Shown piece after piece: positions 41,199 through 62,211 of a stretch of DNA of 64,000 nt; position 1 is the stretch's first letter, and the number at the start of each line of letters is the position of its first letter. The stretch is taken from positions 5,176-69,175 of the forward strand of contig JBBIPG010000002.1 of assembly GCA_037442925.1 (NCBI GenBank). Direction: 5' to 3'. The DNA comes from Candidatus Fraserbacteria bacterium (lineage in GTDB: Bacteria > Bipolaricaulota > Bipolaricaulia > RBG-16-55-9). The translations under genes were made by a program, and so were the position numbers. Below the pieces are notes generated by a model. It made no database searches, had not been told where the DNA came from, and saw only the letters and a list, made by a program, of their open reading frames with translations.

Positions 41199-41237
41199 CC
41201 TAGCATGGAAAAACCATGATCTAGGCTAGCCCCATGG
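41199..41237. promoter_or_regulatory. Cluster of CTAG/CATGG inverted repeats (CCTAGCATGG-aaaaa-CCATGatCTAGG ... CCATGG) in the divergent promoter between OFOR3/hyp genes and the cooC-acs operon
   Basis: Seen directly in the 138-bp divergent intergenic region. Confidence 0.35.
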
Positions 41238-41290
41238 ATGATCTTCGTCATTTTACATCGCTATACGCAACACATACAATACAGACACGT

Positions 41291-42076: not shown

Positions 42077-42592
42077 ATGGAGCGACTCTTCTGTGACCCA
42101 CGAAAGTGCGTGGGCTGCCATTCGTGCGAACTGGCCTGCGCGCTGGAGCATACCCCCTCCAAAGATCTATTCCGGGCCGTCCTCACCGGGGAGTCGGGTC
42201 CGCCGCGTCGGCGCGTCCAGACGGTAGGGGACCGGCCCTATCGGGTAGCGATTGGTGGCGTTGTTCTCTCACTGGGCTGCCATCACTGCGATCCTGCCCC
42301 TTGTGTCGATGCGTGCATCGCTGGGGCGATGCATAAAGAAAACGGCGAGACGATCTGCGATCTGGACAAGTGCGTAGGTTGCTGGATGTGCGTGATGAGC
42401 TGCCCGTATGGGGCCATCACGCCTCACGTCAAAGCACTGAAGTGTGATCTCTGCCCCGATCGTCGAGACAAGACCGGGCGATCTCGCTACGCTTGCATCG
42501 AGGCCTGCCCTACGGAGGCCCTCTTTGCCGGGACGTTTGAAGCATTCGAGAAGACCCTATCTCAGCCAATTGTTCAGGGGGTGGCCCGATGA
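42077..42592 (+). CDS. cooF: CooF-like poly-ferredoxin (4 [4Fe-4S] motifs)
   Basis: CVGCHSCELAC, CHHCDPAPC, CVGCWMCVMSCP, CDLCPD...CIEACP. Confidence 0.85.
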   Translation: MERLFCDPRKCVGCHSCELACALEHTPSKDLFRAVLTGESGPPRRRVQTVGDRPYRVAIGGVVLSLGCHHCDPAPCVDACIAGAMHKENGETICDLDKCVGCWMCVMSCPYGAITPHVKALKCDLCPDRRDKTGRSRYACIEACPTEALFAGTFEAFEKTLSQPIVQGVAR

Positions 42593-46900: not shown

Positions 46901-47521
46901 TCGCGACCTGTAGCAGCCAATGTCCAGAAAGTGCTCGAAGCTGCTCCGGAGACTGGGCTGCTACGAGCCGCTCTGGAGACAGACTACTTCCTGGACACCG
47001 TGGTGACAGTGGAGACGGTGAGCAACACTGGGAAAGATCGCTATGAGCGCGTCTATTGCTTGACTCTTGCTGACATCCACTGCTTCTTCGCCAACACCAT
47101 CCTGATCAAGAACTGCGGGTGCTTCGAGTGCATCGTTGCTGTGTTGCCTGAGACCAACGGGGTGATGGTCGCCAGCCGCGAATATCAGGGTGAGACGCCC
47201 ATCGGCATGACCTTCTCGACGATGGCCGGCGAGGTCGGCGGCGGGGTGCAGACGCCGGGCTTTTTGGGCGTGGGCAAGCTCTATCTGACGAGCGAAAAAT
47301 TTATCAGCGCTGAGGGCGGGATCAGGAGATTAGTGTGGATGCCTAGCGAGCTTAAAGAAGAGATCAAAGAGAGACTCCAAAAGCGCTTGGAGGAGATCGG
47401 GATGCCCGAACTCTTCGACAAGATCGCCACTGAAAAAGACGCCACGACGACGGACGAGTTGATGGCATTCTTGCAGAAAGTGGGACACCCGGTGCTCGAG
47501 ATGGAAGCGATCATCGCCTAA
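43922..47521 (+). CDS. acsB: Acetyl-CoA synthase (CODH/ACS beta subunit AcsB), intein-containing precursor (740-aa extein + 459-aa intein)
   Basis: N-terminal AcsB-like region (KIAFPNTAYHLPLIFALTG ... AEEIIEALKYL). A-cluster motif SIMQDPQTS|CGCFEC interrupted by the insert. Extein length matches canonical AcsB. Confidence 0.88.
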   Translation: MSKIIASAAIRGAQHYFSEAETQLKQAIATYKPEKKIAFPNTAYHLPLIFALTGLKVETLKDCEEALNHARSLLPPLPADSLWLPYLGDALDAGIATLIAEEIIEALKYLDPSYKPDPPWLGFTDDSILRTQGIKLVDGRMPGFAACVGALPTNGDAVELIRALQERSILVFIAGSSNGRSMAEQLNEEGIELGWDTYVVPYGKEMSAAVYALNFAARAAMTFGGIKPGSFEAARKILLYNKERVFAFVLALGADPNVNGNGQLLTDEKYATAAGAINFGFPVIADVNIPQILPRGICTYEHVVSGVSLDKIIQKAVEVRGLKLKLAQIPIPVPYGAGFEGERVRKENLYVEFGGKYSTAFELLRARPMDEVEDGKIELIGPDLDQAEEGGAMPLAVLVDVAGRNLKADFEPVLERRIHHFISCINGVMHIGQRDIPWVRLSKEAYEKGFRLKHYGEVLVAKFKDDFGAIVDKVQVKLVTDQAQVDQLLKEAREIYRQRDERVMGMKDEDVDTFYSCILCQSYAPNHVCIVTPQRLGLCGAYTWLDCGASYEMDPHGPNKPVTKGICLDPVLGEWQGVNEYVRVASNGNLERVSMYSIMQDPQTSCVVGETELIIDGVPTPLGEFIEQHRGGERYRDSAALTLREGKARLEPLVALQRFDAPEELIRLETKSGAQLVLTKDHELAVDRPDGMRWVRADQIKAGERLIALKHLRLPGQLPAVVELLPKDFRSRRQLPKSLSPELFYLLGLIASDGCITPRGRYERIIHFVNTDEELVQQFTGIHKELFPDCHLARKVKSAKPTTLRGRTIKPTRPCFQLSSNNSVLGLLAERLGLRVGSQGHWELGRLASLPEAHIAAFLAGVFDGDGSVRLRQYAGKWDIAEGYVCIADERAARHLQLLLRRLGIIGNLNKSGSVWKIVMHGANLRKFAEVIPAKHPEKQAVLASVRQLPGNGRLDKTQEEVLPYYVGQALAQLPACHEVLSPSTLYYYQSGRSRPVAANVQKVLEAAPETGLLRAALETDYFLDTVVTVETVSNTGKDRYERVYCLTLADIHCFFANTILIKNCGCFECIVAVLPETNGVMVASREYQGETPIGMTFSTMAGEVGGGVQTPGFLGVGKLYLTSEKFISAEGGIRRLVWMPSELKEEIKERLQKRLEEIGMPELFDKIATEKDATTTDELMAFLQKVGHPVLEMEAIIA
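45737..47113 (+). mobile_element. Intein (Hint domain + LAGLIDADG homing-endonuclease) inserted in acsB; Cys1 ... terminal Asn, +1 Cys
   Basis: Block A CVVGETELIIDG. Block B LTKDHELAV (T-x-x-H). LAGLIDADG motifs LLGLIASDGCI and FLAGVFDGDGSV. C-terminal ...FFANTILIKN followed by extein CGC. Confidence 0.8.
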
Positions 47522-47529
47522 AGGAGCTT

Positions 47530-48870
47530 GTGATGGCCAAACTCACGGGAATAGAGATCTATAAACACCTGCCCAAGACTAACTGTGGTGACTGTAATTT
47601 CCCTACGTGTATGGCCTTCGCCATGCAAGTGGCCGCCAAGAAAGTGGGTCTCGAGCAGTGCCCACATGTCTCAGCCGAGGCGAAAGCGGCCCTTTCCGAA
47701 GCCCAAGCCCCACCGATGCGTGTGGTCACGATCGGGGCGGGAGATCGTGCGCTCAAAGTCGGCGGCGAGACGGTGTTGTTCCGACACGACGAGAAATTCC
47801 ATCGCCCGACGGTCATTGCCATTCGCGTGCGGGATGATCTGCCGGAAGCGGAGCTGGCTCAGCGTATCGAGAAGATCAATCAGATCCAGTTCGTGCGCGT
47901 CGGACAGAAGATCGCCGTCAATGCCATCGCCGTCGAGCAAACGAACAGTGGGAAGTTTGTGCCCTCCGTGAAGCTTGTCAGCGAAAGATCCCCACTCGTG
48001 CTCATCTTGATCAGCTCTGATCCTCGGGCTCTCACGGCTGCTCTTGAGATCTGTGCGGATCGACGCCCATTGATCCACGCGGCGACAAAAGAGAACTGTA
48101 AAGAACTGGCAGCGCTGGCAAAGCAGTTCAACTGCCCGTTGGCCGTCCGTGCCACATCTCTTGAAGAGCTGGCTGAACTTACTCACGAGATGAAAGCCTC
48201 AGGCGTCGAGGATCTCGTCCTGGACCCGAACGTACAGGGAATGGCTGAGGGACTGACCAAACTGACACAACTCCGTCGTCTGGCCCTAGAGAAGACGTTT
48301 AGACCCTTAGGATTTCCCACCATGACGATCGTTCCTGGCAGTGACCCGTTCATGGATACGGCTCAGGCGGCGGCGTACATCTGCAAGTACGCCAGCATCA
48401 TCGTGATGGATGGCTGCGAACGCTGGCAGCTGTTGCCCATTTTGACAGCGCGCCAGAACATCTACACCGACCCGCAAGTGCCCAACGCTGTCGAGGCCAA
48501 GCTCTACAAAGTGGGCGAGCCAGGATCTCAATCACCCGTACTGGTTACCACAAACTTCGCGCTCACCTACTTCACCGTCGAAGGCGAAGTGGAGAACAGC
48601 CGCGTCCCGGCCTACATCGCCGTGGTGGATACCGGGGGATTGGGTGTGCTCAATGCCTACGCAGACGACAAGCTCACAGCGGAGGGAATCGTCAAGACCG
48701 TCAAGGCCTCTGGAATCATGGATCAAGTTTCCCATAAGAAACTCGTCATCCCCGGATTAGTCGCCGTGCTCAAGGGCGAGATCGAGGACGAAGGAGGCTG
48801 GGAAGTGTTAGTTGGTCCGGAGGAAGCAGCGGGCTTGCCCGCCTACTTGCGAAACGATTGGAAAGCGTAA
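47530..48870 (+). CDS. acsC: Corrinoid iron-sulfur protein large subunit (AcsC/CdhE)
   Basis: N-terminal [4Fe-4S] motif KTNCGDCNFPTCMAFAM. 446 aa. Confidence 0.9.
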   Translation: MMAKLTGIEIYKHLPKTNCGDCNFPTCMAFAMQVAAKKVGLEQCPHVSAEAKAALSEAQAPPMRVVTIGAGDRALKVGGETVLFRHDEKFHRPTVIAIRVRDDLPEAELAQRIEKINQIQFVRVGQKIAVNAIAVEQTNSGKFVPSVKLVSERSPLVLILISSDPRALTAALEICADRRPLIHAATKENCKELAALAKQFNCPLAVRATSLEELAELTHEMKASGVEDLVLDPNVQGMAEGLTKLTQLRRLALEKTFRPLGFPTMTIVPGSDPFMDTAQAAAYICKYASIIVMDGCERWQLLPILTARQNIYTDPQVPNAVEAKLYKVGEPGSQSPVLVTTNFALTYFTVEGEVENSRVPAYIAVVDTGGLGVLNAYADDKLTAEGIVKTVKASGIMDQVSHKKLVIPGLVAVLKGEIEDEGGWEVLVGPEEAAGLPAYLRNDWKA

Positions 48871-48886: not shown

Positions 48887-50797
48887 ATGCCCAAAGTCGT
48901 CTTTCACCCAGATGACGTGAGCGTCGAAGTCGAGCGCGGGGTGACGCTGCAAGCCGCCGCGAAGGCAGCCGGTGTTGAGCTGGCCAGCATCTGCGGCGGG
49001 GATGGCATCTGCGGTCGCTGCCGAGTGATCGTGCGAGACGGCAACATCCAGGCTTCTCCCACTACCTTGCTCAGCCGCGACGAGATCCAAAGAGGGTATG
49101 TACTCGCGTGCCAGACGAAGATCACCGGAGACGTCGAAATCGAAGTGCCCCCAGAAACACGCACGGAAGAGGGGCAGATTCTCATCGACATCGACGCCCA
49201 ACGCTTCCGGGCCCTCTATCAGGAGGAGAAGATCTCTTTTCGGCATGAGCCCTTGGTGCAAAAGCTCTACGCGGAGTTGCCTCGGCCCACGCTGCAAGAT
49301 AATCTGGCGGACCACCAGCGGCTCTACCGCGAAATCCGCCGCCACAAGAACTACCAGATCATGCAGACGGGCCTCAAGGTCTTACAGACTCATCCCAAGC
49401 TCTTTCGCACGAGTCGCTGGAAGATCACGGCTACCCTGGGTATGCGCGGCGGGACCATCGAAGTGCTCCAAGTCGAGGGCGGCAATACCGCAGAGCGCAA
49501 CTACGGCATCGCCGTGGACGTGGGAACTTCCACCGTCGTCGCTCACTTGCTCGATCTGAATACGGGCAAGACGGTGGATGCCGAAGCCATGTACAACTCA
49601 CAGCGTGCGTACGGCGAAGAAGTGACACGGCGCATCATCTATGCAGAACGCGGCGGACTGGACCAGCTGCAAAAGACAGTCGTCAACGATATCAACAACT
49701 TGATCACGGCACTTGTGGCGCGCAACCAGATTGCACAACACGACTGTCTCACGGTTCTTTGCGCCGGCAACACGACGATGATGCATCTCGTATTGGGTCT
49801 GGACCCCACCTACATCCGCCGCGATCCCTACGTTTCCTGTTCGACGGCGCCTCCGCCGGTGCGAGCGGCCGAAGTGGGAATTCAGATCAACCCTCGCGGG
49901 CTTCTGTACTGCCTGCCGGCCATCGGGGGCTGGGTGGGCGGAGATGTGACTGGTGGGATTCTGGCGACGGGACTTCACGAGTCGGATGAGACCGTGATGC
50001 TGATCGATGTCGGCACCAACGGAGAGATCGTCATCGGCAATAGAGAGTGGATGGTGGCCTGTTCGGCCTCCGCCGGTCCGGCCTTTGAGGGCTCGGGAGT
50101 GCAGTGCGGCATGAAAGCAAGCCGCGGCGCGATTGAGCGCGTACAGATCTCATCGGACGGAAACGTGCTCTATAAGAGTGTGGGCAACGTCAAACCCAAA
50201 GGCATCTGTGGCTCGGGGCTCATCGATCTGGTCGCGGCGCTTTTCACAGCTGATCTCATTGATCGGTCCGGAGCGCTGCAGCCGGAAGCCAGCCCCAGAG
50301 TCCGTGAGCGCAACGGCTTGCTCGAGTTCGTTGTCGTTCCCACCCAGCGCTCTGGCACCGGCAAGGATATCGTCATCACTCAAGCCGACATCGAGAATCT
50401 ACTGAGTGCCAAAGCCGCCATCTACGCCGGGGCACACATCTTAATCAAATCGCTCGATCTCGACTTCAACGATATCGAAAGAGTCTTTTTAGCCGGAGGC
50501 TTCGGGAACTATCTGGACCGCGAGAAGGCGATCACGATTGGCCTGATTCCCGATCTACCCCTGGAAAAGATTCGATTTGTCGGTAACACGTCCATCATCG
50601 GGGCCAAACTGGCGCTGCTCTCTCAAGAAGCGTTCGAGCGCAGCTACGAGATCGCGAGGAACGTGACGTATTATGATCTCATTAGCTTTCCGCACTATTA
50701 CGAGGAGTTTCTCGCGGCGAAATTCCTGCCGCATACGGAGCTGGAACGTTTTCCATCTGTGCAGGAGAGACTGAAATCAAAAGCGAGGATCTTCTAG
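48887..50797 (+). CDS. Reductive activator of CoFeSP (RACo/AcsV): N-terminal [2Fe-2S] ferredoxin + ASKHA ATPase
   Basis: CGGDGICGRCRV plant-type ferredoxin motif. About 636 aa. Start ATG 48887 with SD. Confidence 0.8.
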   Translation: MPKVVFHPDDVSVEVERGVTLQAAAKAAGVELASICGGDGICGRCRVIVRDGNIQASPTTLLSRDEIQRGYVLACQTKITGDVEIEVPPETRTEEGQILIDIDAQRFRALYQEEKISFRHEPLVQKLYAELPRPTLQDNLADHQRLYREIRRHKNYQIMQTGLKVLQTHPKLFRTSRWKITATLGMRGGTIEVLQVEGGNTAERNYGIAVDVGTSTVVAHLLDLNTGKTVDAEAMYNSQRAYGEEVTRRIIYAERGGLDQLQKTVVNDINNLITALVARNQIAQHDCLTVLCAGNTTMMHLVLGLDPTYIRRDPYVSCSTAPPPVRAAEVGIQINPRGLLYCLPAIGGWVGGDVTGGILATGLHESDETVMLIDVGTNGEIVIGNREWMVACSASAGPAFEGSGVQCGMKASRGAIERVQISSDGNVLYKSVGNVKPKGICGSGLIDLVAALFTADLIDRSGALQPEASPRVRERNGLLEFVVVPTQRSGTGKDIVITQADIENLLSAKAAIYAGAHILIKSLDLDFNDIERVFLAGGFGNYLDREKAITIGLIPDLPLEKIRFVGNTSIIGAKLALLSQEAFERSYEIARNVTYYDLISFPHYYEEFLAAKFLPHTELERFPSVQERLKSKARIF

Positions 50798-51580
50798 ATG
50801 GCTTTCACCATTGGGGTTGCCGGTAAAGGCGGCGTGGGGAAGACGACCCTGGCAGGTTTGATCGCACGATTGCTGTTGGAGCGCGGCGATGGGCCCGTTT
50901 TGGCGATTGACGCCGATCCCAACACCAACTTTCATCAAGTTCTGGGGCTCCACGTGGAACAGACCATCGGCGAACTGCGCGAAGAGACTCTCAAGAAAAT
51001 AAAAGACTTACCAGCTGGCATCTCCAAGGATCAGTATCTCGAGTACGGCCTGCACCAGTGTCTCGTCGAGGACAATGGCATCGATCTATTGGCCATGGGA
51101 CGAGGCGAGGGTCCCTTCTGCTACTGTGCCGTCAACCACGTACTGCGACGCTACATGGATCTTCTGGCCAAGAACTACAAGTACATCGTCATGGACAACG
51201 AGGCTGGCCTGGAACATCTCTCACGACGAACCACACAAGATGTTGATGTCTTGCTCATAGTGAGCGAATGCTTTCCCGTGGCACTTCAGGCTGCCGCCAG
51301 AATCAGCAAGATCGCCGATGAACTCAAATTACGCATCGGTCAGAGATTCCTCGTGCTAAACCATGTGAACGACGGAACCCTGTCTGGGCCGGCCCAGGAA
51401 GCTCTACAAGAGAGCATTGGGCAGGCGGGGCTCATGCTCATCGGGGAGATCCCCCGCGATGAGGCGATTCGGCGCCTCAGCGTGGAAGGCAAACCGCTGA
51501 GCGAACTACCCGCCTCCTCGCCGGCCAAGTCAGCCGTGAAGGCGATTCTTGAAAGAGTGCTGGAGAAAGGAGGCCCCTGA
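50798..51580 (+). CDS. acsF: AcsF/CooC-type Ni-insertion ATPase (second copy)
   Basis: MAFTIGVAGKGGVGKTT Walker A. CxC motif GPFCYCAV. Confidence 0.85.
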   Translation: MAFTIGVAGKGGVGKTTLAGLIARLLLERGDGPVLAIDADPNTNFHQVLGLHVEQTIGELREETLKKIKDLPAGISKDQYLEYGLHQCLVEDNGIDLLAMGRGEGPFCYCAVNHVLRRYMDLLAKNYKYIVMDNEAGLEHLSRRTTQDVDVLLIVSECFPVALQAAARISKIADELKLRIGQRFLVLNHVNDGTLSGPAQEALQESIGQAGLMLIGEIPRDEAIRRLSVEGKPLSELPASSPAKSAVKAILERVLEKGGP

Positions 51581-52560
51581 TGCCGGTAGCCATTCCCGAT
51601 GTGAAGAAGACTTGGACGAACGCGATCAACGTGGTGACACTGGGGGCCACGCGCGAAGAGGGGGGGACCCGCACGTCGAAGGTGACGGTAGGCGGCGCGA
51701 CTTCGCTCTCCTTCCATCATTTTGAGGGCACGATGCCCCACCCACCTGCGATCGCCATGGAGGTCTGGGATATTGCCCCCACCGACTGGCCCCAGATTCT
51801 GACAGAACCCTTCGCGGATGTGCTGAACGACCCCGGGCTCTGGGCCAAAAAGTGCGTCGAGCAGTACGGTGCCGAGTTGATCTGTCTGCGTCTTATGGGG
51901 TGTGATCCCATTCGTGGCAATCGCGGCCCTCAAGAGGCCGTGCCAGCGGTGAAGCGAGTACTCGCGTCCGTGGGTGTGCCACTCATCATTTGGGGTACGG
52001 GCAACGATGAGAAAGATAATGAGATCTTCCCCGCTGTGGCGGAAGCCGCAGCGGGTGAGAATTGCTTATTAGGCACGATCACGGAAGACAACTACAAGAC
52101 GCTCGTTGCCGTCTGCACGGCGTACAAACATAAGCTGATCGCCGAGTCGCCTTGTGATGTCAACATTGCGAAGCAAGTGAACATCCTTGCCACAGATATG
52201 GGCTTCAAGCCGGAAGACATAGTGATCTATCCCACGAGCGCGGCATTGGGCTATGGACTCGAATACGTCTATTCCATCATGGAGCGGGCCAGGCTCGCGG
52301 CGTTACGCGGCGACAAGATGCTCTCGCAACCCATGATCTGTGATATTGGCATTGAGACATGGGGCGTGAAAGAAGCCAAGGCAAGTGAGCAAGAACTGCC
52401 CGAATGGGGTGAGCAGAAGGAGCGCGCGCCGCTGTGGGAAGCGACAACGGCATACATCTATTTGCTGACGGGGGCAGATCTTCTTGTGCTGCGCCATCCA
52501 CGGGCTGTCGCCAGCGTGCGGCAAGCGATCCAGCAACTCATGGGAGCCGGAGGCGGTTAG
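51580..52560 (+). CDS. acsD: Corrinoid iron-sulfur protein small subunit (AcsD/CdhD)
   Basis: TIM-barrel CFeSP small-subunit-like sequence. 326 aa. Context between acsF and acsE. Confidence 0.85.
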   Translation: MPVAIPDVKKTWTNAINVVTLGATREEGGTRTSKVTVGGATSLSFHHFEGTMPHPPAIAMEVWDIAPTDWPQILTEPFADVLNDPGLWAKKCVEQYGAELICLRLMGCDPIRGNRGPQEAVPAVKRVLASVGVPLIIWGTGNDEKDNEIFPAVAEAAAGENCLLGTITEDNYKTLVAVCTAYKHKLIAESPCDVNIAKQVNILATDMGFKPEDIVIYPTSAALGYGLEYVYSIMERARLAALRGDKMLSQPMICDIGIETWGVKEAKASEQELPEWGEQKERAPLWEATTAYIYLLTGADLLVLRHPRAVASVRQAIQQLMGAGGG

Positions 52561-52561
52561 C

Positions 52562-53365
52562 ATGATCCTCATTGGCGAGCGAATCAACGGCTCTTTCAAA
52601 GACGTCGGGGCTGCCATCAAAGAGAGGAACAAAGAACCCATTCAAGACTGGGCAAAGAAGCAGACCGAAGCGGGAGCGGATTATCTCGATGTCAACTTGG
52701 GCGCGGTATCGAAGAATCCCGCTGACTTCGCCTGGCTCATTCAGACCGTTTGTGAAGCTGTGCCCACGCCGCTTTCGATCGATTCGCTCAAGCTCGATCT
52801 GGTGCGCGCGGGACTGGAAGCTTATAGAGAATTCGGAGGCAGGCGACCTGTCATTATCAACAGCACGACCGCCGAAGAGAGCAAACTGATGCCGTTAGTC
52901 GAGTTGGCGGTTCAGTACAACTCAGGTCTCATTGGCGTCGTGATGGATGAGCGTGGCAGCCCGCAAGATATTGACCGACGAGTTGAGCTGGGAGCGAAGA
53001 TCTTTGCCATCGCGAGCGAAGCGGGTCTACCTCCGGAACGAGTCTATCTCGACCCCATCGTCATGCCGGTCAAGTTTATGCAAGAGCAGGGCAAGAACGT
53101 CCTAGAAGCCATAAGGCAGTTCGCGATGATCTCCGACCCTCCGCCGCATATCTCTATCGGGCTCAGTAATATCTGCTCCAAAGCCCAAGAACGCTCGCTC
53201 ATCACTCGGACGTTTCTCGTCATGGCCATGGCGGCTGGCTGCGATGCCGCAATCTGCAATGTGATGGACGCGGAACTCGTAAACGCTGTAGCCACAGCGG
53301 AGTTGATTCTCAACAAAGAAATATACAGCGACAGCTACTTGAAGGCATATCGAAAGCGGGGCTGA
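52562..53365 (+). CDS. acsE: Methyltetrahydrofolate:corrinoid iron-sulfur protein methyltransferase (AcsE/MeTr, pterin-binding)
   Basis: MILIGERINGSFKDV N-terminus typical of MeTr. 267 aa. Confidence 0.85.
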   Translation: MILIGERINGSFKDVGAAIKERNKEPIQDWAKKQTEAGADYLDVNLGAVSKNPADFAWLIQTVCEAVPTPLSIDSLKLDLVRAGLEAYREFGGRRPVIINSTTAEESKLMPLVELAVQYNSGLIGVVMDERGSPQDIDRRVELGAKIFAIASEAGLPPERVYLDPIVMPVKFMQEQGKNVLEAIRQFAMISDPPPHISIGLSNICSKAQERSLITRTFLVMAMAAGCDAAICNVMDAELVNAVATAELILNKEIYSDSYLKAYRKRG

Positions 53366-53366
53366 A

Positions 53367-54266
53367 ATGAGACTTACAGGTGTACATCTGCTCCTGACGT
53401 ACGAGTGCAATCTCGAGTGCGATCATTGCTTCGTCTGGGGCAGTCCCTGGCAACGTGGCACGATGACTCTCAAGACCATCCGTGAGATCCTACAGCAAGC
53501 TAAGGATCTTGGAACGGTAGAGTGGATCTACTTTGAGGGTGGCGAACCCTTTCTCTACTACGCCACTCTGCTCAAAGGGGTGCAAGTGGCTGCACGCCTG
53601 GGCTTTCAAGTGGGGATCGTATCGAATGGCTACTGGGCCACCGATGCGCAAGATGCTCTAGAGTGGCTAAGACCCTTCGCGGGTCTTGTGCAAGACTTAT
53701 CGATCAGTAGCGACCTCTATCACTGGAAGGAGAGCCTCAGCCAGCAAGCCAAGCACATCTGCTCCGCGGCGGGAAAGCTAGACATCCCCATGCAAATCCT
53801 CCACATCGCGGCACCCGAAGTCGCGGATGCCCCATCCGCGGTGGGACAACTTCCGCCGGGTACGTCGAAGGTCATGTATCGTGGGCGTGCGGCAGAGAAG
53901 TTGGCAAACAAGACTCCACGCCGACCTTGGACAGAGTTCACGGCTTGTACGCATGAGGACCTCCGTGAGCCAGGGCGGGTACACATCGACCCCTTTGGGA
54001 ATGTCCACATCTGCCAGGGGATCGCGCTGGGTAACGTCTACCAAACACCGCTGAGGAGCATGTGCAGGAAGTACGATCCGGATACTCACCCGATTGCCGG
54101 TCCGTTGCTTTCGGGCGGTCCCGCAGAGCTTGTGCGCCGCTACAAGCTGGCTCACGAAGCACGATGTGCCGATTCATGCCATCTGTGCTATGAGGCCCGT
54201 CGGGCTCTGCGCAGTCGCTTTCCGGATGTCCTAAAACCGGATCAGATGTATGGAGTGGTGCCGTGA
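53367..54266 (+). CDS. Radical SAM protein of unknown function embedded in the acs operon (CxxxCxxC + C-terminal Cys-rich auxiliary region)
   Basis: LTYECNLECDHCF radical-SAM motif. C-terminal CTHE...HICQG...CRKY...CADSCHLC. 2-nt gap after acsE. Confidence 0.7.
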   Translation: MRLTGVHLLLTYECNLECDHCFVWGSPWQRGTMTLKTIREILQQAKDLGTVEWIYFEGGEPFLYYATLLKGVQVAARLGFQVGIVSNGYWATDAQDALEWLRPFAGLVQDLSISSDLYHWKESLSQQAKHICSAAGKLDIPMQILHIAAPEVADAPSAVGQLPPGTSKVMYRGRAAEKLANKTPRRPWTEFTACTHEDLREPGRVHIDPFGNVHICQGIALGNVYQTPLRSMCRKYDPDTHPIAGPLLSGGPAELVRRYKLAHEARCADSCHLCYEARRALRSRFPDVLKPDQMYGVVP

Positions 54267-54324
54267 ACGTGCTAGGTACAGCAGTCGAAAGACTCGCGTT
54301 GACCATCTTGGGGAAGGGGGAGTC

Positions 54325-56232
54325 ATGAAAGAAAAAAGCGTAGATCGAGCCTCACAAGAGATGCTCGAGCACGCAAAGCAAGAGCATCTGGAGACAGCTT
54401 GGGATCGCTGGGAACTTCAACAACCCCAGTGCGGCTTCGGACAACTGGGTTTATGTTGCCGGATCTGCAATATGGGTCCGTGTCGCATTGACCCGTTTGG
54501 GAGCGGACCCAAGCGCGGCGTATGTGGTGCTGACGCCGATACGTTCGTTGCTCGCCATCTAACCCGCATGATCGCTGCCGGGACGGCAGCGCACTCGGAC
54601 CACGGGCGCGATGTGGCACATACGCTGCTGCTGGCTGCGGAGGGCCATCGCGGCTATCGCATCAAAGATCCACGGAAGCTGCGTAAAGTCGCTGCCGAGT
54701 TTGGCATTGGGGCAGACACGAAGAGCGATGCAGAGATTGCCAAGGCGTTGGCAGAAAAGGCGTTGGCGGAGTTCGGCCAACAAGAGGGAGAACTGACACT
54801 AACTCGACGTGCTCCCAAGGCGCGGCAAGAGCTCTGGCGCAAGCTAGGAATCATGCCGCGCGGGATCGACCGCGAAGTCGTGGAGATGATGCACCGCACG
54901 ACGATGGGGGTAGACACAGATTATAAGAACATCTTGCTCCAAGGCATGAGGACATCGTTGGCTGATGGCTGGGGTGGCTCGATGCTCGCCACAGACATTC
55001 AAGACATTCTCTTTGGGACTCCAATGCCTCTACGTTCCCGCGTGAATCTGGGAGTGCTAAAGAAGGACGAGGTCAACGTCGTCGTTCATGGCCACGAACC
55101 CATCTTGTCAGAGATGCTCGTGGTAGCCAGCCGTGACCCAGAGCTGGTGAAGTTAGCTCAGCAAAAGGGCGCTCGCGGAATCAATATCACCGGCATCTGC
55201 TGCACGGCCAATGAGATTCTCATGCGCCACGGCATCCCGATTGCAGGCAACTTCTTGCAGCAGGAGCTGGCACTGGCCACGGGAGCCGTGGATGCCATGA
55301 TTGTGGACGTGCAATGTGTCATGCCCGCTCTGGCGAGTCTCGCTCAGTGCTTCCACACAAAGCTCATTGCCACCTCACCCAAGGCGAAATTCCCCAATAC
55401 AGACTTTGTGGAGTTCCGCGAGGAACGCGCCATTGAGGCAGCGAAAGAGATCATCCAGCGCGCGATAGAGAACTACCCGAATCGCGAGCCGCGTCGCATG
55501 CAGATCCCGGATGCCTCGATGGATCTGATCGCTGGCTTCACTTCTGAGTCTGTATTTCGATTCTTAGGCGGACGCTATCGAGCTACCTACCGGCCGCTTA
55601 ACGATGCCATCATGGACGGGAGGCTCCGCGGAGCCGTCGGCGTCGTCGGCTGCAACAACCCCAATATCACCCATGACTGGGGGCACCTGACGCTCACCAA
55701 AGAACTCCTGAAGAACGATGTACTAGTCGTGTCAAGTGGCTGCTCAGCCATCGCGGATGCCAAGTTCGGCCTGCTTAGGCCGGAGGCGGCCCACAATTAC
55801 GCCGGACCCGGCTTGCGTGAGATCTGCGAGACGGTAGGCATACCGCCGGTGCTCCACGTGGGAGCCTGCGTGGATAACTCACGCATCTTGACGACGCTGA
55901 TTGAGATCGTGGGTGAGGGTGGCTTAGGAGACGACTTCGCGAAACTGCCTGTGGCGGGATCTGCACCTGAGTGGATGAGCGAAAAGGCCGTGGCCATCGG
56001 GTTCTATTTCGTCGCTTCCGGAGCTCTGGTGCACTTTGGGACACCCCAGCCGATCTACGGCAGCAAGAACGTGACAGAGTTCTTGACGAAAGATGTCGAG
56101 ACGCTTGTGGGTGGCAAGTTCGCCTTCGAGCCTGATCCACAAAAGGCGGCCAAACTGATCCTCGAGCATCTAGATCGCAAGCGGGCCGACTTGAAGCTTC
56201 GAGAACCGATGTATACTCCTGTGTACGCGTAG
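54325..56232 (+). CDS. cooS: Ni-dependent CO dehydrogenase catalytic subunit (CooS/AcsA)
   Basis: QCGFGQLGLCCRICNMGPCRI D-cluster/B-cluster motif. 635 aa. ATG 54325 with strong SD. Confidence 0.92.
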   Translation: MKEKSVDRASQEMLEHAKQEHLETAWDRWELQQPQCGFGQLGLCCRICNMGPCRIDPFGSGPKRGVCGADADTFVARHLTRMIAAGTAAHSDHGRDVAHTLLLAAEGHRGYRIKDPRKLRKVAAEFGIGADTKSDAEIAKALAEKALAEFGQQEGELTLTRRAPKARQELWRKLGIMPRGIDREVVEMMHRTTMGVDTDYKNILLQGMRTSLADGWGGSMLATDIQDILFGTPMPLRSRVNLGVLKKDEVNVVVHGHEPILSEMLVVASRDPELVKLAQQKGARGINITGICCTANEILMRHGIPIAGNFLQQELALATGAVDAMIVDVQCVMPALASLAQCFHTKLIATSPKAKFPNTDFVEFREERAIEAAKEIIQRAIENYPNREPRRMQIPDASMDLIAGFTSESVFRFLGGRYRATYRPLNDAIMDGRLRGAVGVVGCNNPNITHDWGHLTLTKELLKNDVLVVSSGCSAIADAKFGLLRPEAAHNYAGPGLREICETVGIPPVLHVGACVDNSRILTTLIEIVGEGGLGDDFAKLPVAGSAPEWMSEKAVAIGFYFVASGALVHFGTPQPIYGSKNVTEFLTKDVETLVGGKFAFEPDPQKAAKLILEHLDRKRADLKLREPMYTPVYA

Positions 56233-56234
56233 CT

Positions 56235-56873
56235 ATGAAGCCCAACCCGACATGGGAGAAGAGCCTGGAGCCGCAGATCCAGCGGGCGCGGGAGGAACTG
56301 CGCCGCCGCGACCCCCACATAATAGCCGATCTCAGTGGGGGGGAGTACATTGAGAGTACATCAGGCAGCGGCGAGATGCGTCTGCAATTCTTTGGGCGCA
56401 TCTACAAGATCGACTGGCCGGAGTTGGAGACTGTGGATCCCCAAGGACGCCCTTGCTCGAATCCCATGCAAGCATCGCTCTTGCAGTATCTTCTTCTGGC
56501 TGACGGGTCGCCGCTTGCGGACCAGTGGGTTTCGCTGCGAGAGCTGCCCAATGGGGCCTTCTACGAGCGAGCCTTTCAGAGCTATTCTGGAAATCTGGTT
56601 GCACGTACGTTCAAGAGCGACGTGCAAGCCTTTCGCAATGCCGCGCTCAAGCTGGGCGGTGAGCTCCTATCGCTCGGAGATGCTTCGTTTCGCTTCTGGG
56701 CGCTTCCCAAGATCCCGCTGGCTCTTGTCTACTGGTCCGGTGGCGATGAATTCCCCGCAAGTGCACAAGTCTTGTTTGACGCTTCTGCAGGACACTATCA
56801 CCACTTGGAGATGCTGGCACATCTGGGGGCGTTGCTCTGCGATAGGGTCATCGCGGCGCACGAAGCGTGCTAG
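56235..56873 (+). CDS. DUF3786-like protein commonly found in CODH/ACS clusters
   Basis: 212 aa. Motif recollection (ALPKIPLALVYWSGGDEF) and synteny. Family assignment made from memory. Confidence 0.5.
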   Translation: MKPNPTWEKSLEPQIQRAREELRRRDPHIIADLSGGEYIESTSGSGEMRLQFFGRIYKIDWPELETVDPQGRPCSNPMQASLLQYLLLADGSPLADQWVSLRELPNGAFYERAFQSYSGNLVARTFKSDVQAFRNAALKLGGELLSLGDASFRFWALPKIPLALVYWSGGDEFPASAQVLFDASAGHYHHLEMLAHLGALLCDRVIAAHEAC

Positions 56874-56916
56874 GAGAGATCGTCACGATGGGCAAGAAGA
56901 AGTAGGTATTACGCCA

Positions 56917-57117
56917 ATGAATCTCGATTTCTACGCACCAGATTTGCGAGAGCAGTTGGGCAAACTTGACCGAGAGAAGACGTATGTCGTCTACTGTCGA
57001 ACGGGAAATCGCTCTGCGCAGACTGTGGCCCTGATGAAGGAGTTGGAGTTCCGCCGGATCTATAACTTAGAGAGCGGGATTGTGGCATGGCAGAGTGAGG
57101 GCCTACCACTCAAGTAA
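56917..57117 (+). CDS. Short rhodanese-like domain (C-terminal half with active-site loop CRTGNRS); possibly truncated
   Basis: VVYCRTGNRSAQTVALMKELEF...GIVAWQ. Only 66 codons from first ATG. The upstream part of ORF-track 56335 frame is an overlap artefact. Confidence 0.5.
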   Translation: MNLDFYAPDLREQLGKLDREKTYVVYCRTGNRSAQTVALMKELEFRRIYNLESGIVAWQSEGLPLK

Positions 57118-57135: not shown

Positions 57136-58302
57136 ATGCGAGACGTTGTGATCGTTGGAGCCGCCCGCTGCGCCGTAGGCAGAGCGGTCAAGGGCATCTT
57201 GAGAAATACGCGGCCAGATGAGATGGCGGCGGAAGTGTTGAAGGGTTTGATTCAAAAGACGGGCGTTAACCCCGCCGAACTCGATGACCTTCGTCTGGGT
57301 TGTGCTATACCGGAGGCAGAGCAGGGCCTTAACGTCGCCCGCATCACACAGTTTTTGGCCAAGATTCCCGAGAGGGTTCCCGCCTGCACGATCAATCGCT
57401 TCTGCGCCTCAGGGCTGGAGTCCATTGTCAATGCTTGCTATCAGATTGCGTATGGCGACGCGGATTTGATCATGGCGGGTGGTGTGGAGAGCATGAGCAA
57501 GGTCCCCATGACGGGGCACACGCCGCGGCCCAATCCCAAGCTGGCCGTAGAGTATCCCGAGGTCTACACTCCCATGGGAATCACAGCGGAGAATCTCGTC
57601 GAACGATACAAGATCTCTCGTGAAGCCCAAGACCAGTTCGCGTACGAGTCGCACAGGAAAGCAGCCCAAGCGACCAGAGAGGGCCGCTTCAAAGAGGAGA
57701 TTGTCCCGCTCGAGGTACAAGTCGACGGCAAGCGAGTCTTGCACGAAATCGATGAGACCATTCGCCCAGATACGACGGTAGAAGCCTTGGCAACGCTTAA
57801 ACCTTCCTTCAAAGAGGGGGGAACGGTCACGCCGGGGAACTCTTCTCCCCTGACCGACGGAGCCTCGGCGGTGTTGATCGCATCCAAGAAGAAGGCCCGC
57901 AGCTTGGGTTTGAAGCCATTCGCTCGATTCGTCTGTGCCGCGACCTCGGGTGTCGCTCCGGAGATCATGGGGATCGGCCCGGTCTACGCCATCCCCAAAG
58001 CTCTTGCGAAGGCGAATCTCTCACTCAAAGACATCGACTTGATTGAGCTGAACGAGGCGTTTGCTGCCCAATCGCTGGCCGTCATTCAAGAGCTGGATCT
58101 GCCAATGAGAAAACTTAACGTCAACGGCGGGGCAATCGCACTGGGCCATGCCCTTGGCTCTTCGGGAGCTCGCCTGACGACAACGTTGGTCTATGAGATG
58201 GCCCGGCGAGAGGTGGCTCTTGGGTTGGTCTCGATGTGCGTGGGAGGCGGCCAAGGGATGGCTGCCATCTTCGAGCGCGTGTGGGAAGGGAGCAGAAGGT
58301 GA
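57136..58302 (+). CDS. Acetyl-CoA C-acetyltransferase (thiolase II)
   Basis: VIVGAARCAVGR, NRFCASGLESI active-site Cys, C-terminal GGGQGMA. 388 aa. Confidence 0.9.
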   Translation: MRDVVIVGAARCAVGRAVKGILRNTRPDEMAAEVLKGLIQKTGVNPAELDDLRLGCAIPEAEQGLNVARITQFLAKIPERVPACTINRFCASGLESIVNACYQIAYGDADLIMAGGVESMSKVPMTGHTPRPNPKLAVEYPEVYTPMGITAENLVERYKISREAQDQFAYESHRKAAQATREGRFKEEIVPLEVQVDGKRVLHEIDETIRPDTTVEALATLKPSFKEGGTVTPGNSSPLTDGASAVLIASKKKARSLGLKPFARFVCAATSGVAPEIMGIGPVYAIPKALAKANLSLKDIDLIELNEAFAAQSLAVIQELDLPMRKLNVNGGAIALGHALGSSGARLTTTLVYEMARREVALGLVSMCVGGGQGMAAIFERVWEGSRR

Positions 58303-60704
58303 TGCGAAAAATCAAGACAGCGGTGGTGTTGGGTGCCGGAACCATGGGAGCAGGCATCGCGGCCCTTTTGGCAAGCGTGGGCATCAAGACGTATCTACTG
58401 GACATCGTACCCAAGGAATTGACGCCGGAAGAGAAAGCGAAAGGCTTGAGTCTCCGTGAGCCCGTCGTCCGCAATAGAATTGTAAACTCCGGTCTTCAGC
58501 GGGCCCTCAAGGCAAGCCCGGCCCTCTTCTATGATCCGGCCGATGCACAACTCATCACAGTGGGAAACATCGAGGACAATCTCGACTGGCTGAGAGAAGC
58601 CGACTGGATCGTCGAGGCGGTCTTTGAAAGACTCGATGTCAAACAAGACATCTTTGCCAAGATCGAGAAGTTCAGGAACCCGCATTCCATCGTCAGCTCC
58701 AATACTTCGGGGATTGCACTCAAAGCGATCACTCAAAAGTCCTCACCGGAGCTCAAGAAGCACACACTCATCACGCACTTCTTCAACCCCGTTCGCTACA
58801 TGAAACTTCTGGAAGTCGTCGCCGGCACGGAGACCGACCCGAAAATCCTAGAATTCATGAGCGACTTTGCCGAGCGCAAGCTAGGCAAGGGAGTCGTCCT
58901 GGCGAAGGACACGCCTAACTTCATCTGCAATCGTATCGGCATCTTCGGCATCTGCTATCTGTTAAAAGCTATGCAAGAGGGCGACTATAAAGTCGAAGAG
59001 ATTGACGCGATCTTTGGACCGTCATTGGGGCGCCCCAAGAGCGCCGTCTTCCGAACGGTCGACTTGGTCGGCTTGGATGTCATGGCCGATGTCATCAAGA
59101 ATATCTATACGAGCTTGCCGAACGATCCGATGCGTGAGGTCTATCGCCCGCCCGATTTCATCCAGAAGATGCTCACTCAAGGGCTCTTGGGACGCAAGGC
59201 AGGCAAGGGGTTCTATCAAGAAAAGACCCTCAACGGCAAGCGGGAGTTCTGGGTCTTCGATTACAACATTCTCAACTATCGTCGCCAGGAGAAGTTCGAC
59301 TATCCCTCGTTAGCCAAAGCGACGCAGCAGTCCACTGTCGGCGAGAAGATCAAGACCGTCGTCTACTCTGACGACCGCGCAGGTCAGATCGCCTGGAAGG
59401 TGCTCTCAGAAACTCTGCTCTATACGGCCACTCTGATTCCGGAGATCTCGGACGATGTCTACCCCATTGATCATGCGATGAAATGGGGCTTCAACTGGGA
59501 GCTAGGGCCATTTGAGACATGGGATGCGATCGGCGTTCGCGAGTCTGTGGAGCGGCTGCAACGCGAGGGCAAGAAGATCCCTAAGCTTGTTGAAGATCTC
59601 TTGCAGCGAGGAGAGAGCTTCTATCACAAGCGGGACTCCAAGAAGCTTTACTATGACATCCAGCTAAGAGACTATCGCGAATTGCCACGGCCTGCCGGTG
59701 TCATAGTGCTCTCGCAGCTTAAAGAAGACAGGAAGAGGATCATCAGAGAATCGCCGGGGGCTTCGCTCGTAGATCTAGGCGATGGCGTGGCGTGTCTCGA
59801 ATTCCACACGTACATGAACACCGTGGATGCGGATGTCATCGAGATGATGAACGCTTCGCTTGATGAGGTCGAGAAGAACTACGAGGGGCTCGTCATCGGG
59901 AACGAAGGCCAGAACTTCTGTGTCGGGGCCAACGTCGCGTTGCTTCTGGGAGCGATGCAGAGTCAAAGCTGGAATGAGATCGATCGGCTGGTGAAGGCCT
60001 TTCAAGACACCAACATGGCAATCAAGTACTTCGACAAGCCCGTCGTCGCTGCTCCCTTCAATATGACGTTAGGAGGCGGTGCGGAGATCGCCATGCACTG
60101 CGCTCGCATTCGCGCCCATAGCGAGCTGTACATGGGTCAAGTCGAGTTCGGGGTCGGCTTGATCCCGGCGGCAGGAGGCTGCAAGGAGCTTTGGATCAGA
60201 AATATAGAGAACGTCCCCGAGGATGCCAGCGTAGATCTCTTCCCGTACTTGCAGAGGGCTTTCGAGACGATCGCATTGGCGAAAGTGGCGACGAGTGCGA
60301 AAGAAGCTAGAAAGTTAGGCTTTCTTCGCCGAGTGGATAAGATCACACCAAACCGAGATCGCCTGATGGCTGAAGCGAAAGAGCAAGCGCTGGCGCTCGT
60401 CCGCGAGGGCTATGAACCGCCAGTTCCGAGAAGGTATCAAGTCTTGGGGCGAAGCGGGTATGCAGCGTTACAGATCGCGATCAAGAGCTTCCAGTGGGGC
60501 AAGCGCGTCACAGATCATGAGGTCGTGATGGCGACGCAGCTAGCCAAAGTGCTCACGGGTGGAGATGTAGAAGCGGGCACGGAAGTGACAGAACAACACT
60601 TGTTGGATCTGGAGCGTGAGGCGTTTCTCCATCTCTGCGGAACCGTCAAGACTCAAGAGCGCATCCAGCACTTTCTGACTACGGGGAAACCACCGAGGAA
60701 TTGA
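58302..60704 (+). CDS. Fused 3-hydroxyacyl-CoA dehydrogenase (N) / enoyl-CoA hydratase (crotonase, C) multifunctional enzyme
   Basis: N-terminal VVLGAGTMGAGIAALLA Rossmann. C-terminal crotonase-like FCVGANVALL...GGGAEIAMHC. ATG overlaps thiolase stop. Confidence 0.85.
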   Translation: MRKIKTAVVLGAGTMGAGIAALLASVGIKTYLLDIVPKELTPEEKAKGLSLREPVVRNRIVNSGLQRALKASPALFYDPADAQLITVGNIEDNLDWLREADWIVEAVFERLDVKQDIFAKIEKFRNPHSIVSSNTSGIALKAITQKSSPELKKHTLITHFFNPVRYMKLLEVVAGTETDPKILEFMSDFAERKLGKGVVLAKDTPNFICNRIGIFGICYLLKAMQEGDYKVEEIDAIFGPSLGRPKSAVFRTVDLVGLDVMADVIKNIYTSLPNDPMREVYRPPDFIQKMLTQGLLGRKAGKGFYQEKTLNGKREFWVFDYNILNYRRQEKFDYPSLAKATQQSTVGEKIKTVVYSDDRAGQIAWKVLSETLLYTATLIPEISDDVYPIDHAMKWGFNWELGPFETWDAIGVRESVERLQREGKKIPKLVEDLLQRGESFYHKRDSKKLYYDIQLRDYRELPRPAGVIVLSQLKEDRKRIIRESPGASLVDLGDGVACLEFHTYMNTVDADVIEMMNASLDEVEKNYEGLVIGNEGQNFCVGANVALLLGAMQSQSWNEIDRLVKAFQDTNMAIKYFDKPVVAAPFNMTLGGGAEIAMHCARIRAHSELYMGQVEFGVGLIPAAGGCKELWIRNIENVPEDASVDLFPYLQRAFETIALAKVATSAKEARKLGFLRRVDKITPNRDRLMAEAKEQALALVREGYEPPVPRRYQVLGRSGYAALQIAIKSFQWGKRVTDHEVVMATQLAKVLTGGDVEAGTEVTEQHLLDLEREAFLHLCGTVKTQERIQHFLTTGKPPRN

Positions 60705-60741
60705 GCGAGAAGCCACTGCGCACCGTGATGTGGGAGGTGAG

Positions 60742-62211
60742 ATGATGTTCAACAAGATTGCAGCTAAATTGGCGATCTTGAGCACAGCAGCGTCGCTATT
60801 GGCCGTAGCGTTACTCTTGGGCCTGAATCAGCCTGCGATGCAGGCTCAGAGCACAAGCGTCTGTGTGGACTGTCACACGAAAGAAACCCCAGGCATCGTC
60901 GCTCAGTGGCAAAAGGGGAAGATGGGTCAGATGGGTCTCGATTGCTCCGTCTGCCACGGCTCTGAACATAAAGATGCGAGTGATGCCGCGAAGGCCCAAC
61001 GGCCCACTCCCGAGACCTGCAAGACCTGCCATGCGCAGCAGGTCGAGCAGTTTCGATCCGGCAAGCACTCGCTAGCCTGGGTGGCTATGAAAGCCATGCC
61101 CATGGTCGTTCATCAACCCGTAGCCGTGATCGGTTCCGAAGGCTTTAAGGGTTGCTCCGGTTGCCATAAGATCGGCGAGAAGTCAGCCGAAGAGCTACAA
61201 GGGTTCCGCTACGGCACGGGAAGTTGCGATTCTTGTCATACCCGCCATAGTTTCAATGTTAGCGAAGCGCGCGACCCCAGAGCTTGCCAAACTTGCCACA
61301 TGGGCTTCGACCACCCCCAGTGGGAGATGTGGTCCACTTCCAAGCACGGCACCATCTGGCAGATCGAGGGAGACACCGGACGTGCCCCCACGTGCCAGAC
61401 CTGCCACATGTCCGAGGGCAATCACGCCGTGATGACCGCCTGGGGATTTCTCGCTCTGCGCGTACCAGAGGACGATCCAGAGTGGTGGGCTGATCGGGTG
61501 GAGATCCTCAAAGCTTTGGGGGTCTTCGATGAGAAGGGTCAAGGCACGGAACGTCTCGAGGCAGTCGAAGCAGCGAGAATGGCTCGCTTGACCAAAGAGG
61601 AATTTCAGGCTGAGCGGGCTAAGACGGAAGGCAACTGCGCACGCTGCCACTCGGCCAGCTATGTGGCTGAGCAATTGGCCGCCGGTGATGCGATCATTCG
61701 CGAAGCAGATCGCATCATGGCCGAAGCCATCCGCACGGTCAAGGGTCTCTACAGTGACGGGCTGCTACAAGTGCCCCAAGGATGGAAGTATGCTCCTGAC
61801 CTGCTGCAGTTCTATGAGGCCAAGAGCAGCGTGGAACAGGAGCTATACGTCATGTTTCTGGAATACCGCATGAGGGCCTTTCAAGGCGCGTTTCACGTCA
61901 ACCCGGACTACATGCACTGGTATGGCTGGGCTCCGATGAAGGAGTCCTTGCAGAAGATCAAGGATGAAGCAGTCCGCATGAGAGCTGAAGCTGCCGCCAA
62001 GCCCGCCGGAGAGGCTGTTCCACAGAAAGAGATCACTACGCTCAAGAGCGAGCTCGATAAGGTCACACGTGATCTGGAGAAGCTCGTCATCGAAGGGGAA
62101 ACACTGAAGGGTGAGGTAACCGAGGCAAAGCAAGGCCAGACGCTTGTCCTTAGGGCTGTAGTCATCGGCCTGATTGCCTTGATCCTCAGTGCCCTCGCAC
62201 TGTTGGGATAA
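60742..62211 (+). CDS. Membrane-anchored octaheme c-type cytochrome (8 CxxCH)
   Basis: Signal/TM N-terminus. Heme motifs CVDCH, CSVCH, CKTCH, CSGCH, CDSCH, CQTCH, CQTCH, CARCH. Coiled-coil then C-terminal TM helix. Confidence 0.8.
   Translation: MMFNKIAAKLAILSTAASLLAVALLLGLNQPAMQAQSTSVCVDCHTKETPGIVAQWQKGKMGQMGLDCSVCHGSEHKDASDAAKAQRPTPETCKTCHAQQVEQFRSGKHSLAWVAMKAMPMVVHQPVAVIGSEGFKGCSGCHKIGEKSAEELQGFRYGTGSCDSCHTRHSFNVSEARDPRACQTCHMGFDHPQWEMWSTSKHGTIWQIEGDTGRAPTCQTCHMSEGNHAVMTAWGFLALRVPEDDPEWWADRVEILKALGVFDEKGQGTERLEAVEAARMARLTKEEFQAERAKTEGNCARCHSASYVAEQLAAGDAIIREADRIMAEAIRTVKGLYSDGLLQVPQGWKYAPDLLQFYEAKSSVEQELYVMFLEYRMRAFQGAFHVNPDYMHWYGWAPMKESLQKIKDEAVRMRAEAAAKPAGEAVPQKEITTLKSELDKVTRDLEKLVIEGETLKGEVTEAKQGQTLVLRAVVIGLIALILSALALLG

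Follow-up and report, generated by a model that had tools for sequence, protein, structure and literature searches.

A gene for a radical S-adenosylmethionine (SAM) protein of 299 amino acids (aa), here called RS, lies between acsE and cooS in a gene cluster for carbon monoxide dehydrogenase/acetyl-CoA synthase (CODH/ACS) of a Candidatus Fraserbacteria bacterium (assembly GCA_037442925.1), and its position raises the question of what it does there. The cluster was analysed within a stretch of 64,000 nucleotides (nt) of contig JBBIPG010000002.1 (positions 5,176 to 69,175), which we refer to as the window and whose coordinates are used below unless a locus is named. A first-pass annotation of this DNA had suggested that RS could be a maturation factor for the Ni-Fe-S A- or C-clusters of CODH/ACS, or a corrinoid-related enzyme; our analysis confirmed the observation behind this suggestion and partly supported its interpretation. 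RS is a genuine and conserved radical SAM enzyme of an uncharacterised family, and it is probably not a dedicated CODH/ACS maturation factor, because the family adjoins CODH/ACS genes in one small bacterial clade only. The explanation that we hold to have somewhat better than even chances is that RS is a functional EpeE-like radical SAM/twitch enzyme of a large orphan family, carried here as an accessory or passenger gene specific to the clade and not as a Ni-Fe-S maturase.

Sequence features, profile matches and predicted fold of RS

The open reading frame (ORF), the two cysteine motifs that had been picked out in it (C14NLEC18DHC21 and the Cys-rich C267ADSC271HLC274) and its radical SAM character were all borne out, the protein matching the generic radical SAM profile PF04055 with 42.7 bits against a gathering threshold of 29.5. 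In an alignment of 41 diverse family members (31–78% identical to the window protein), the radical SAM ligands C14-x3-C18-x2-C21 were invariant or nearly so and the GGEP motif (G58-G59-E60-P61) was conserved, its G58-G59-E60 belonging, with G173-R174, C194, G211-x4-C216, C271-x2-C274 and R278, to the invariant or near-invariant positions. A twitch-type cysteine pattern (C194-x16-G211-x4-C216 together with C271-x2-C274) was kept in these sequences down to 31% identity, with a first spacing, Cx16Gx4C, that exceeds the canonical Cx9-15Gx4C by one residue. From this pattern we propose C194, C216, C271 and C274 as putative ligands of a single auxiliary [4Fe-4S] site; C267 is specific to the window protein and is not a family residue.

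No specific family of NCBIfam, Pfam or PADLOC reached its own cut-off with RS, in agreement with its having been called uncharacterised, and the literature searched contained nothing on RS, on a radical SAM protein with acsE/cooS or on Fraserbacteria/Bipolaricaulota acs operons. The best NCBIfam model was that of the peptide epimerase YydG (TIGR04078), which scored 66.3 bits (cut-off 300) over residues 8–142 only. The same model ranked top for all of the 41 diverse members (best E-value 2.7e-20), and a profile of the RS family matched YydG at E 3e-26 across residues 4–181. An AlphaFold model built from the 41-sequence alignment had a mean confidence (pLDDT) of 92.9; an earlier model from 25 sequences of about 70% identity was discarded (pLDDT 53). 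In a Foldseek comparison of the accepted model with the Protein Data Bank (PDB), EpeE/YydG was the sole full-length match (E 1.2e-13; template modelling [TM] scores TMq 0.72 and TMt 0.67; approximately 320 columns), at 18–19% sequence identity. SkfB came next (TM 0.56), followed by viperins (0.44, N-terminal half only) and SpeY, which was likewise N-terminal, and twitch-type dehydrogenases were also present among the fold matches. A sequence search of the PDB with the C-terminal half of RS returned nothing relevant. A role in defence was considered from the PADLOC comparison and rejected, the matches being sub-threshold and confined to the viperin core.

EpeE combines a radical SAM cluster with a single auxiliary cluster, the latter in an extended twitch ('T-SPASM') domain, and its Cys223 gives a hydrogen atom back to the C-alpha radical (PMC13012085, PMC5682303). 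RS resembles this Bacillus subtilis enzyme (PDB 8AI1-8AI6) in its length (about 300–320 aa), in the CxxxCDHC motif at the extreme N-terminus and in a putative single auxiliary [4Fe-4S] site, and the predicted RS structure combines the radical SAM barrel with an extended twitch domain at the C-terminus. The two nevertheless differ in that only 18–19% of residues are identical, the 300-bit equivalog cut-off of TIGR04078 is missed, the C-terminal half of RS has no detectable sequence similarity, and a YydF/EpeX-type precursor with peptidase and ABC exporter is neither adjacent to the window gene nor conserved beside RS at about 160 loci; the RS family also surpasses epipeptide clusters by far in conservation and is more widespread. 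Other twitch/SPASM enzymes (SkfB, BtrN, SpeY, PqqE and MoaA) share the arrangement Cx(n)Gx4C ... CxxC after the radical SAM core and give weaker fold matches, but RS has the longer Cx16Gx4C spacing and one putative cluster site, and none of the corresponding hidden Markov models (HMMs) comes near its cut-off. The prokaryotic viperins (pVip) have a similar N-terminal core (PADLOC, 59 bits) and, like RS, are often stand-alone genes, whereas the match covers only the N-terminal 110–160 residues of RS and viperins lack an auxiliary-cluster domain; the viperin model NF038283 gave 50.4 bits (cut-off 180) over residues 9–116, and the overlap in fold was approximately 158 columns.

Distribution and gene context of the RS family

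RS has more than 7,500 homologous proteins, and 193 clusters at the 50% identity level match it below E 1e-30; the best 120 homologues are all of about 300 aa and 67–93% identical. The size of the family, the low ratio of nonsynonymous to synonymous substitution rates (Ka/Ks) and the base composition in keeping with the neighbouring genes, both described below, establish that the gene is real. Members are labelled 'MoaA/NifB/PqqE/SkfB family' in JGI. When one genome per species was scanned, more than 571 loci came to light, and gene context was analysed at the 80 best of these (59–78% identical), which were mostly from Chloroflexota/Anaerolineae, with others from Armatimonadota, Desulfobacteria, Zixibacteria, Gemmatimonadota, Bacteroidota, Caldithrix, Thermotogae, Bathyarchaeia and Thorarchaeota. 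A further 80 loci came from JGI metagenomes, and the comparison of gene context took in approximately 165 orthologue loci (60–78% identical).

Neighbouring acs genes were sought by tblastn with all window proteins within 6–10 kb of each RS gene. At the scanned loci they were found beside RS only in the closest relative, Candidatus Fraserbacteria RBG_16_55_9 (locus L002), and, loosely, on one Bathyarchaeia contig; about 155 other loci had no acs gene within that distance. The conserved co-localisation with acsB/cooS that marks a CODH/ACS-specific accessory protein was thus seen in one clade only, and the conserved acs neighbourhood on which the maturation-factor suggestion depended is lacking from genomes outside that clade across the approximately 165 loci. 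The family also has members in phyla and contexts in which CODH/ACS would not be expected, such as a position beside cytochrome c oxidase genes.

Nor was any other gene a conserved neighbour of RS: when all ORFs within 6 kb were clustered, the most frequent protein cluster was present at 14 of the 80 loci. In a Pfam census the commonest upstream neighbours were Aldedh (8/140), PIG-L (5/140), B12-binding (4/140) and Pterin_bind (3/140), with ABC_tran and DUF429 (6/136 each) downstream. No conserved small ORF (18–110 aa) was detected within 700 nt of RS at about 160 loci, the largest cluster of such ORFs coming from nine loci and consisting of alternative frames of neighbouring genes. An Rfam scan of 59 RS-orthologue loci and the whole window found no riboswitch, cobalamin riboswitches included, and no other RNA. 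The RS family as a whole is therefore context-free and not tied to CODH/ACS. What this delimits, in bacteria and archaea, is a very large and unusually conserved orphan family with an EpeE-like fold and no curated model.

Conservation of RS within the acs operons of one clade

The acs context of RS is limited to the loci L002, L082/L083, L088, L172 and L173. The order acsD-acsE-RS-cooS-DUF3786 recurs among them, with RS proteins that are 78% (L082/L083), 69% (L088), 71% (L173) and 98% (sister strain L172) identical to the window protein, so that at least four diverged lineages, all of one Fraserbacteria/Bipolaricaulota-like clade, have acsE-RS-cooS-DUF3786. The distance from the acsE stop to the RS start is exactly 1 nt at every acs-embedded locus, and the acs proteins of these loci are 79–100% identical to those of the window. 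Against three syntenic orthologues, RS had Ka/Ks values of 0.075–0.137, similar to those of acsE and DUF3786, with synonymous divergence (Ks) that was saturated (>1.7 against L082 and L088), and its GC content and third-position GC content (GC3) match those of the neighbouring genes. These values mean that the insertion is old and under selection. Recent horizontal transfer of RS into the operon was considered and is ruled out by the matching GC/GC3 and by the saturated Ks between the syntenic copies.

Two loci from other Bipolaricaulota with the same operon architecture, L170 and L171, lack RS, and acsE there runs directly into cooS; their acsE and RACo proteins are 86–87% and 82–83% identical to those of the window. 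A Bipolaricaulia metagenome-assembled genome (L028) carries RS on a contig without acs genes. In the sister strain (GCA_037444325.1, locus L172), the DNA is 98–99% identical to the window from cooS onward, but three extra genes stand between RS and cooS (L172 7949–10646, corresponding to about window position 54314, where homology resumes within the RS-cooS spacer). They encode a 449-aa coiled-coil/transmembrane protein, a 269-aa ORF without matches and a 181-aa DinB_2-like protein. These three unrelated genes show the acsE-cooS junction to be an insertion-prone slot that takes up foreign cargo.

In a single neighbour-joining tree of RS proteins, the acs-embedded copies formed two groups (window/L082, and P0023 with L088/P0027), both within one clade of 27 leaves that also holds P0006 from a locus without acs genes (L003); this one tree is poorly resolved and too weak to separate single from multiple insertions.

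Proposed function of RS and competing explanations

If RS acts as its family and fold suggest, its N-terminal [4Fe-4S] cluster on C14/C18/C21 would bind SAM and cleave it reductively. The 5'-deoxyadenosyl radical so formed would take a hydrogen atom from a substrate lodged between the partial TIM barrel and the twitch domain at the C-terminus; the second [4Fe-4S] cluster, on C194/C216/C271/C274, may transfer electrons or quench radicals. If EpeE is a guide, a C-H bond in a peptide or protein is the most likely target, and since no precursor gene travels with RS, the substrate would be encoded elsewhere in the genome. The gene would have been inserted once at the acsE-cooS junction in one Fraserbacteria/Bipolaricaulota-like clade, then retained there by purifying selection and co-transcribed with the acs genes. 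Several observations sit uneasily with this explanation. The identity of 60–78% across phyla and the invariant R174, R204, H206 and R278 would also suit a small-molecule substrate in place of a peptide; no counterpart of the hydrogen-donating Cys223 of EpeE could be assigned in RS, EpeE having been compared as sequence fragments; beyond the seven putative cluster ligands there is no family-wide cysteine, C233 being invariant among close orthologues only; and the retention of RS at the exact junction in four lineages, through saturated synonymous divergence, exceeds what a neutral passenger needs. The conserved junction hints at some benefit from co-expression with the acs genes. Should the EpeE-like, clade-specific explanation hold, the place of RS in the acs operon would be a local curiosity, and there would be no ground for annotating RS as a CODH/ACS maturase or for pursuing it as one. 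The acs-embedded copies would still be co-expressed, by their natural position, with a defined enzyme complex, and could serve as a first substrate screen.

That RS works on a small molecule (a nucleotide, sugar or cofactor intermediate, in the manner of viperin, BtrN/SpeY or MoaA), its place in the operon being incidental, is unlikely in our estimation, although the lack of a family-wide context, the extreme conservation and the invariance of basic residues would all fit, as would the viperin-like N-terminal half (59 bits with pVip, 50 bits with NF038283) and the twitch-type dehydrogenases among the fold matches. Viperin and SpeY match over only about 150–160 columns (TM ~0.4), however, whereas EpeE matches end to end; the viperin-type HMM scores all lie far below their cut-offs, and the Pfam census found no kinase, sugar or cofactor pathway genes beside RS. 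An epipeptide-type maturase of peptides that are made by the ribosome and modified after translation (RiPPs), acting on a small precursor peptide, would accord with the finding that no characterised relative is closer to RS, in sequence or in fold, than EpeE/YydG. The gaps of 1 nt and 58 nt beside the window gene leave no space for a precursor gene, and the small-ORF search produced no conserved one at the other loci; peptidase or ABC-exporter partners are not conserved in the RS neighbourhoods, the YydG score (66 bits against 300) falls far short, and the conservation of RS across phyla (60–78% identity) is rare for RiPP maturases, so that we give this explanation scarcely any credence.

We regard a dedicated role for RS in maturing the A-cluster or C-cluster of CODH/ACS as very improbable, even though the gene sits between acsE and cooS, the junction is kept in four lineages and selection is purifying. 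The Bipolaricaulota operons of L170 and L171, otherwise identical, do without it, more than 150 RS-orthologue loci have no acs genes, and the family extends to lineages and contexts in which CODH/ACS is not expected. The operon moreover already encodes two CooC/AcsF-type P-loop ATPases (41234–42058 and 50798–51580), known Ni-insertion accessories of CODH/ACS that share the operon with RS but belong to a wholly different protein class and chemistry, and which, unlike RS, are kept in all operons examined. To our knowledge, active ACS and CODH have been made heterologously with only nickel and CooC/AcsF-type help and no radical SAM enzyme, which also weighs against such a role.

The other part of the earlier suggestion, a corrinoid-related enzyme, survives as a minor lead. 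RS might be tied to corrinoid methyl transfer by modifying or repairing a corrinoid protein, a methyltransferase or RACo, or by acting on the cofactor, hence its place after acsE, and it does lie directly downstream of corrinoid systems in three settings: behind acsE in the window clade; in the same-strand order RACo-MttB-corrinoid protein-RS, with a gap of approximately 66 nt, in Anaerolineae (L013, 5729–10909; L014; L096; L099); and in L017, where a RACo-like gene and a 157-aa gene precede RS, the latter gene overlapping it by 4 nt. Related loci (L050, L139) have an orthologous RACo-MttB-corrinoid cluster a few kb upstream, B12-binding (4/140) and Pterin_bind (3/140) are among the commonest upstream neighbours, and on the Bathyarchaeia contig RS is found upstream of the cdh operon, at a distance of 1.6 kb. 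Against this, an opposite-strand gene separates RS from cdh in that contig, approximately 95% of RS loci lack a corrinoid-type neighbour, and no cobalamin riboswitch was found in the 59 loci and the window. The flanking DNA examined comes to roughly 1.9 Mb, in which a few RACo genes would be expected by chance in the MttB-rich Anaerolineae; once related genomes are collapsed, three to four independent events remain among about 130 lineages, and the theme was chosen after the fact from many possible ones. A corrinoid link of this kind therefore seems to us rather improbable, and its broadest form, in which the whole family of more than 7,500 members modifies corrinoid methyl-transfer proteins (AcsE or AcsCD here, MttB/MttC-type proteins in Anaerolineae), installing a modification not seen before and possibly mass-neutral, such as an epimerisation, is decidedly doubtful. 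If true, the targeting of corrinoid proteins would explain how RS came, independently, to follow acsE, a RACo-MttB-corrinoid cluster and another RACo gene.

Organisation of the CODH/ACS cluster in the window

The CODH/ACS cluster spans approximately 41.2 to 62.7 kb of the window on the + strand and comprises the following features:

41234–42058, +, cooC-type ATPase
42077–42592, +, ferredoxin
42589–43917, +, pyridine-nucleotide-disulphide oxidoreductase
43922–47521, +, acsB, containing an intein
47530–48870, +, acsC
48887–50797, +, RACo
50798–51580, +, second cooC/acsF-type ATPase
51580–52560, +, acsD
52562–53365, +, acsE, methyltetrahydrofolate:corrinoid/Fe-S protein methyltransferase, 267 aa (Pfam Pterin_bind, 62 bits)
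53367–54266, +, RS, radical SAM gene, 299 aa (PF04055)
54267–54324, +, RS-cooS spacer of 58 nt, carrying the cooS ribosome-binding site GGAAGGGGGAG
54325–56232, +, cooS/acsA, Ni-CODH catalytic subunit, 635 aa (Pfam Prismane, 599 bits)
56235–56873, +, DUF3786 protein, 212 aa (PF12654)
56904–57117, +, rhodanese relic, with a 66-aa ORF at 56917–57117
57136–58302, +, thiolase
58299–60704, +, 3-hydroxyacyl-CoA dehydrogenase/enoyl-CoA hydratase fusion
60730–62211, +, multihaem cytochrome, 493 aa
62256–62747, +, NuoE-like protein

The acsE protein scored 257 bits with NCBIfam model NF005719, slightly below the cut-off of 259 bits, and cooS scored 717 bits with TIGR01702 (cut-off 478). The acsE stop codon TGA occupies 53363–53365 and the RS start codon ATG begins at 53367; the genes nearly abut, as the first-pass annotation had noted, with a gap of 1 nt where it gave 2 nt. 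The longest cooS ORF begins at 54250, but its likely start is the ATG at 54325, behind the strong ribosome-binding site GGAAGGGGGAG and 58 nt past the RS stop, which matches an independent gene call (635 aa). An independent assembly holds an identical contig of 13.9 kb. A consensus scan found 20 terminator-like sites in 20 kb, where 15.2 would be expected; none above background stood between acsE and the thiolase gene, and the + strand sites of this stretch were intragenic. With the tight spacing of the genes, co-transcription of RS with the acs genes, which had been predicted from that spacing, is very probable.

The thiolase and fused dehydrogenase/hydratase genes (57136–60704) adjoin the acs cluster in the window, L082, L172 and L173 and are absent from L088, L170 and L171, and this distribution suggests that the synthesis or cleavage of acetyl-CoA is coupled, in a clade-specific way, to chemistry of the beta-oxidation type. 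The multihaem cytochrome c that stands between these genes and the NuoE-like gene has hydrophobic segments at its N- and C-terminus. L082 has no such cytochrome at the matching position, where the NuoE-like gene comes directly.

DUF3786 protein and rhodanese relic

Two further products had been proposed downstream of cooS, and both were confirmed. The DUF3786 protein matches PF12654 with 164.5 bits (threshold 27) over positions 1–175 of the 176 in the profile, i.e. at full length, and in all operons examined, whether or not they carry RS, its gene comes directly after cooS. DUF3786, and not RS, is thus the conserved partner of cooS and the better candidate for a CODH-associated function. An alignment of its homologues showed a C-terminal motif, H187-Y-H-H-L-E192-x-L-A-H196, that is invariant or nearly so; such a His-rich motif would suit a metal site and may mark DUF3786 as a candidate metal-handling protein. 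No solved structural relative was found, and the literature searched did not discuss the protein, the term DUF3786 appearing only in work on an unrelated subject and PF12654 returning none.

The 66-aa ORF at 56917–57117 matches only positions 50–102 of the 102 in the rhodanese profile PF00581, consistent with the remnant that had been described. It keeps the catalytic loop CRTGNRS and lacks roughly the first 86 residues of a protein that is intact, at 152–154 aa, in L082, L083 and L173. Relative to L082, the window copy has lost approximately 226 nt, with the deletion junction at 56903|56904, and in the sister strain L172 the gene is completely absent. The rhodanese is a gene in decay, and it is very unlikely that the 66-aa ORF folds as a rhodanese domain.

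AcsB intein

The acsB gene of the window contains an intein of 459 aa (45737–47113, residues 606–1064) with a LAGLIDADG homing-endonuclease domain; no paper on an AcsB intein was among the top-ranked matches listed in our literature search. The intein begins with CVVGETEL, ends with ILIKN and sits immediately before the first cysteine of the A-cluster Ni-binding CGCFEC motif. AcsB of L082 (740 aa, 91% identical) is without an intein, and AcsB of the sister strain L172 is 1741 aa long with two LAGLIDADG_3 matches, which imply two inteins.

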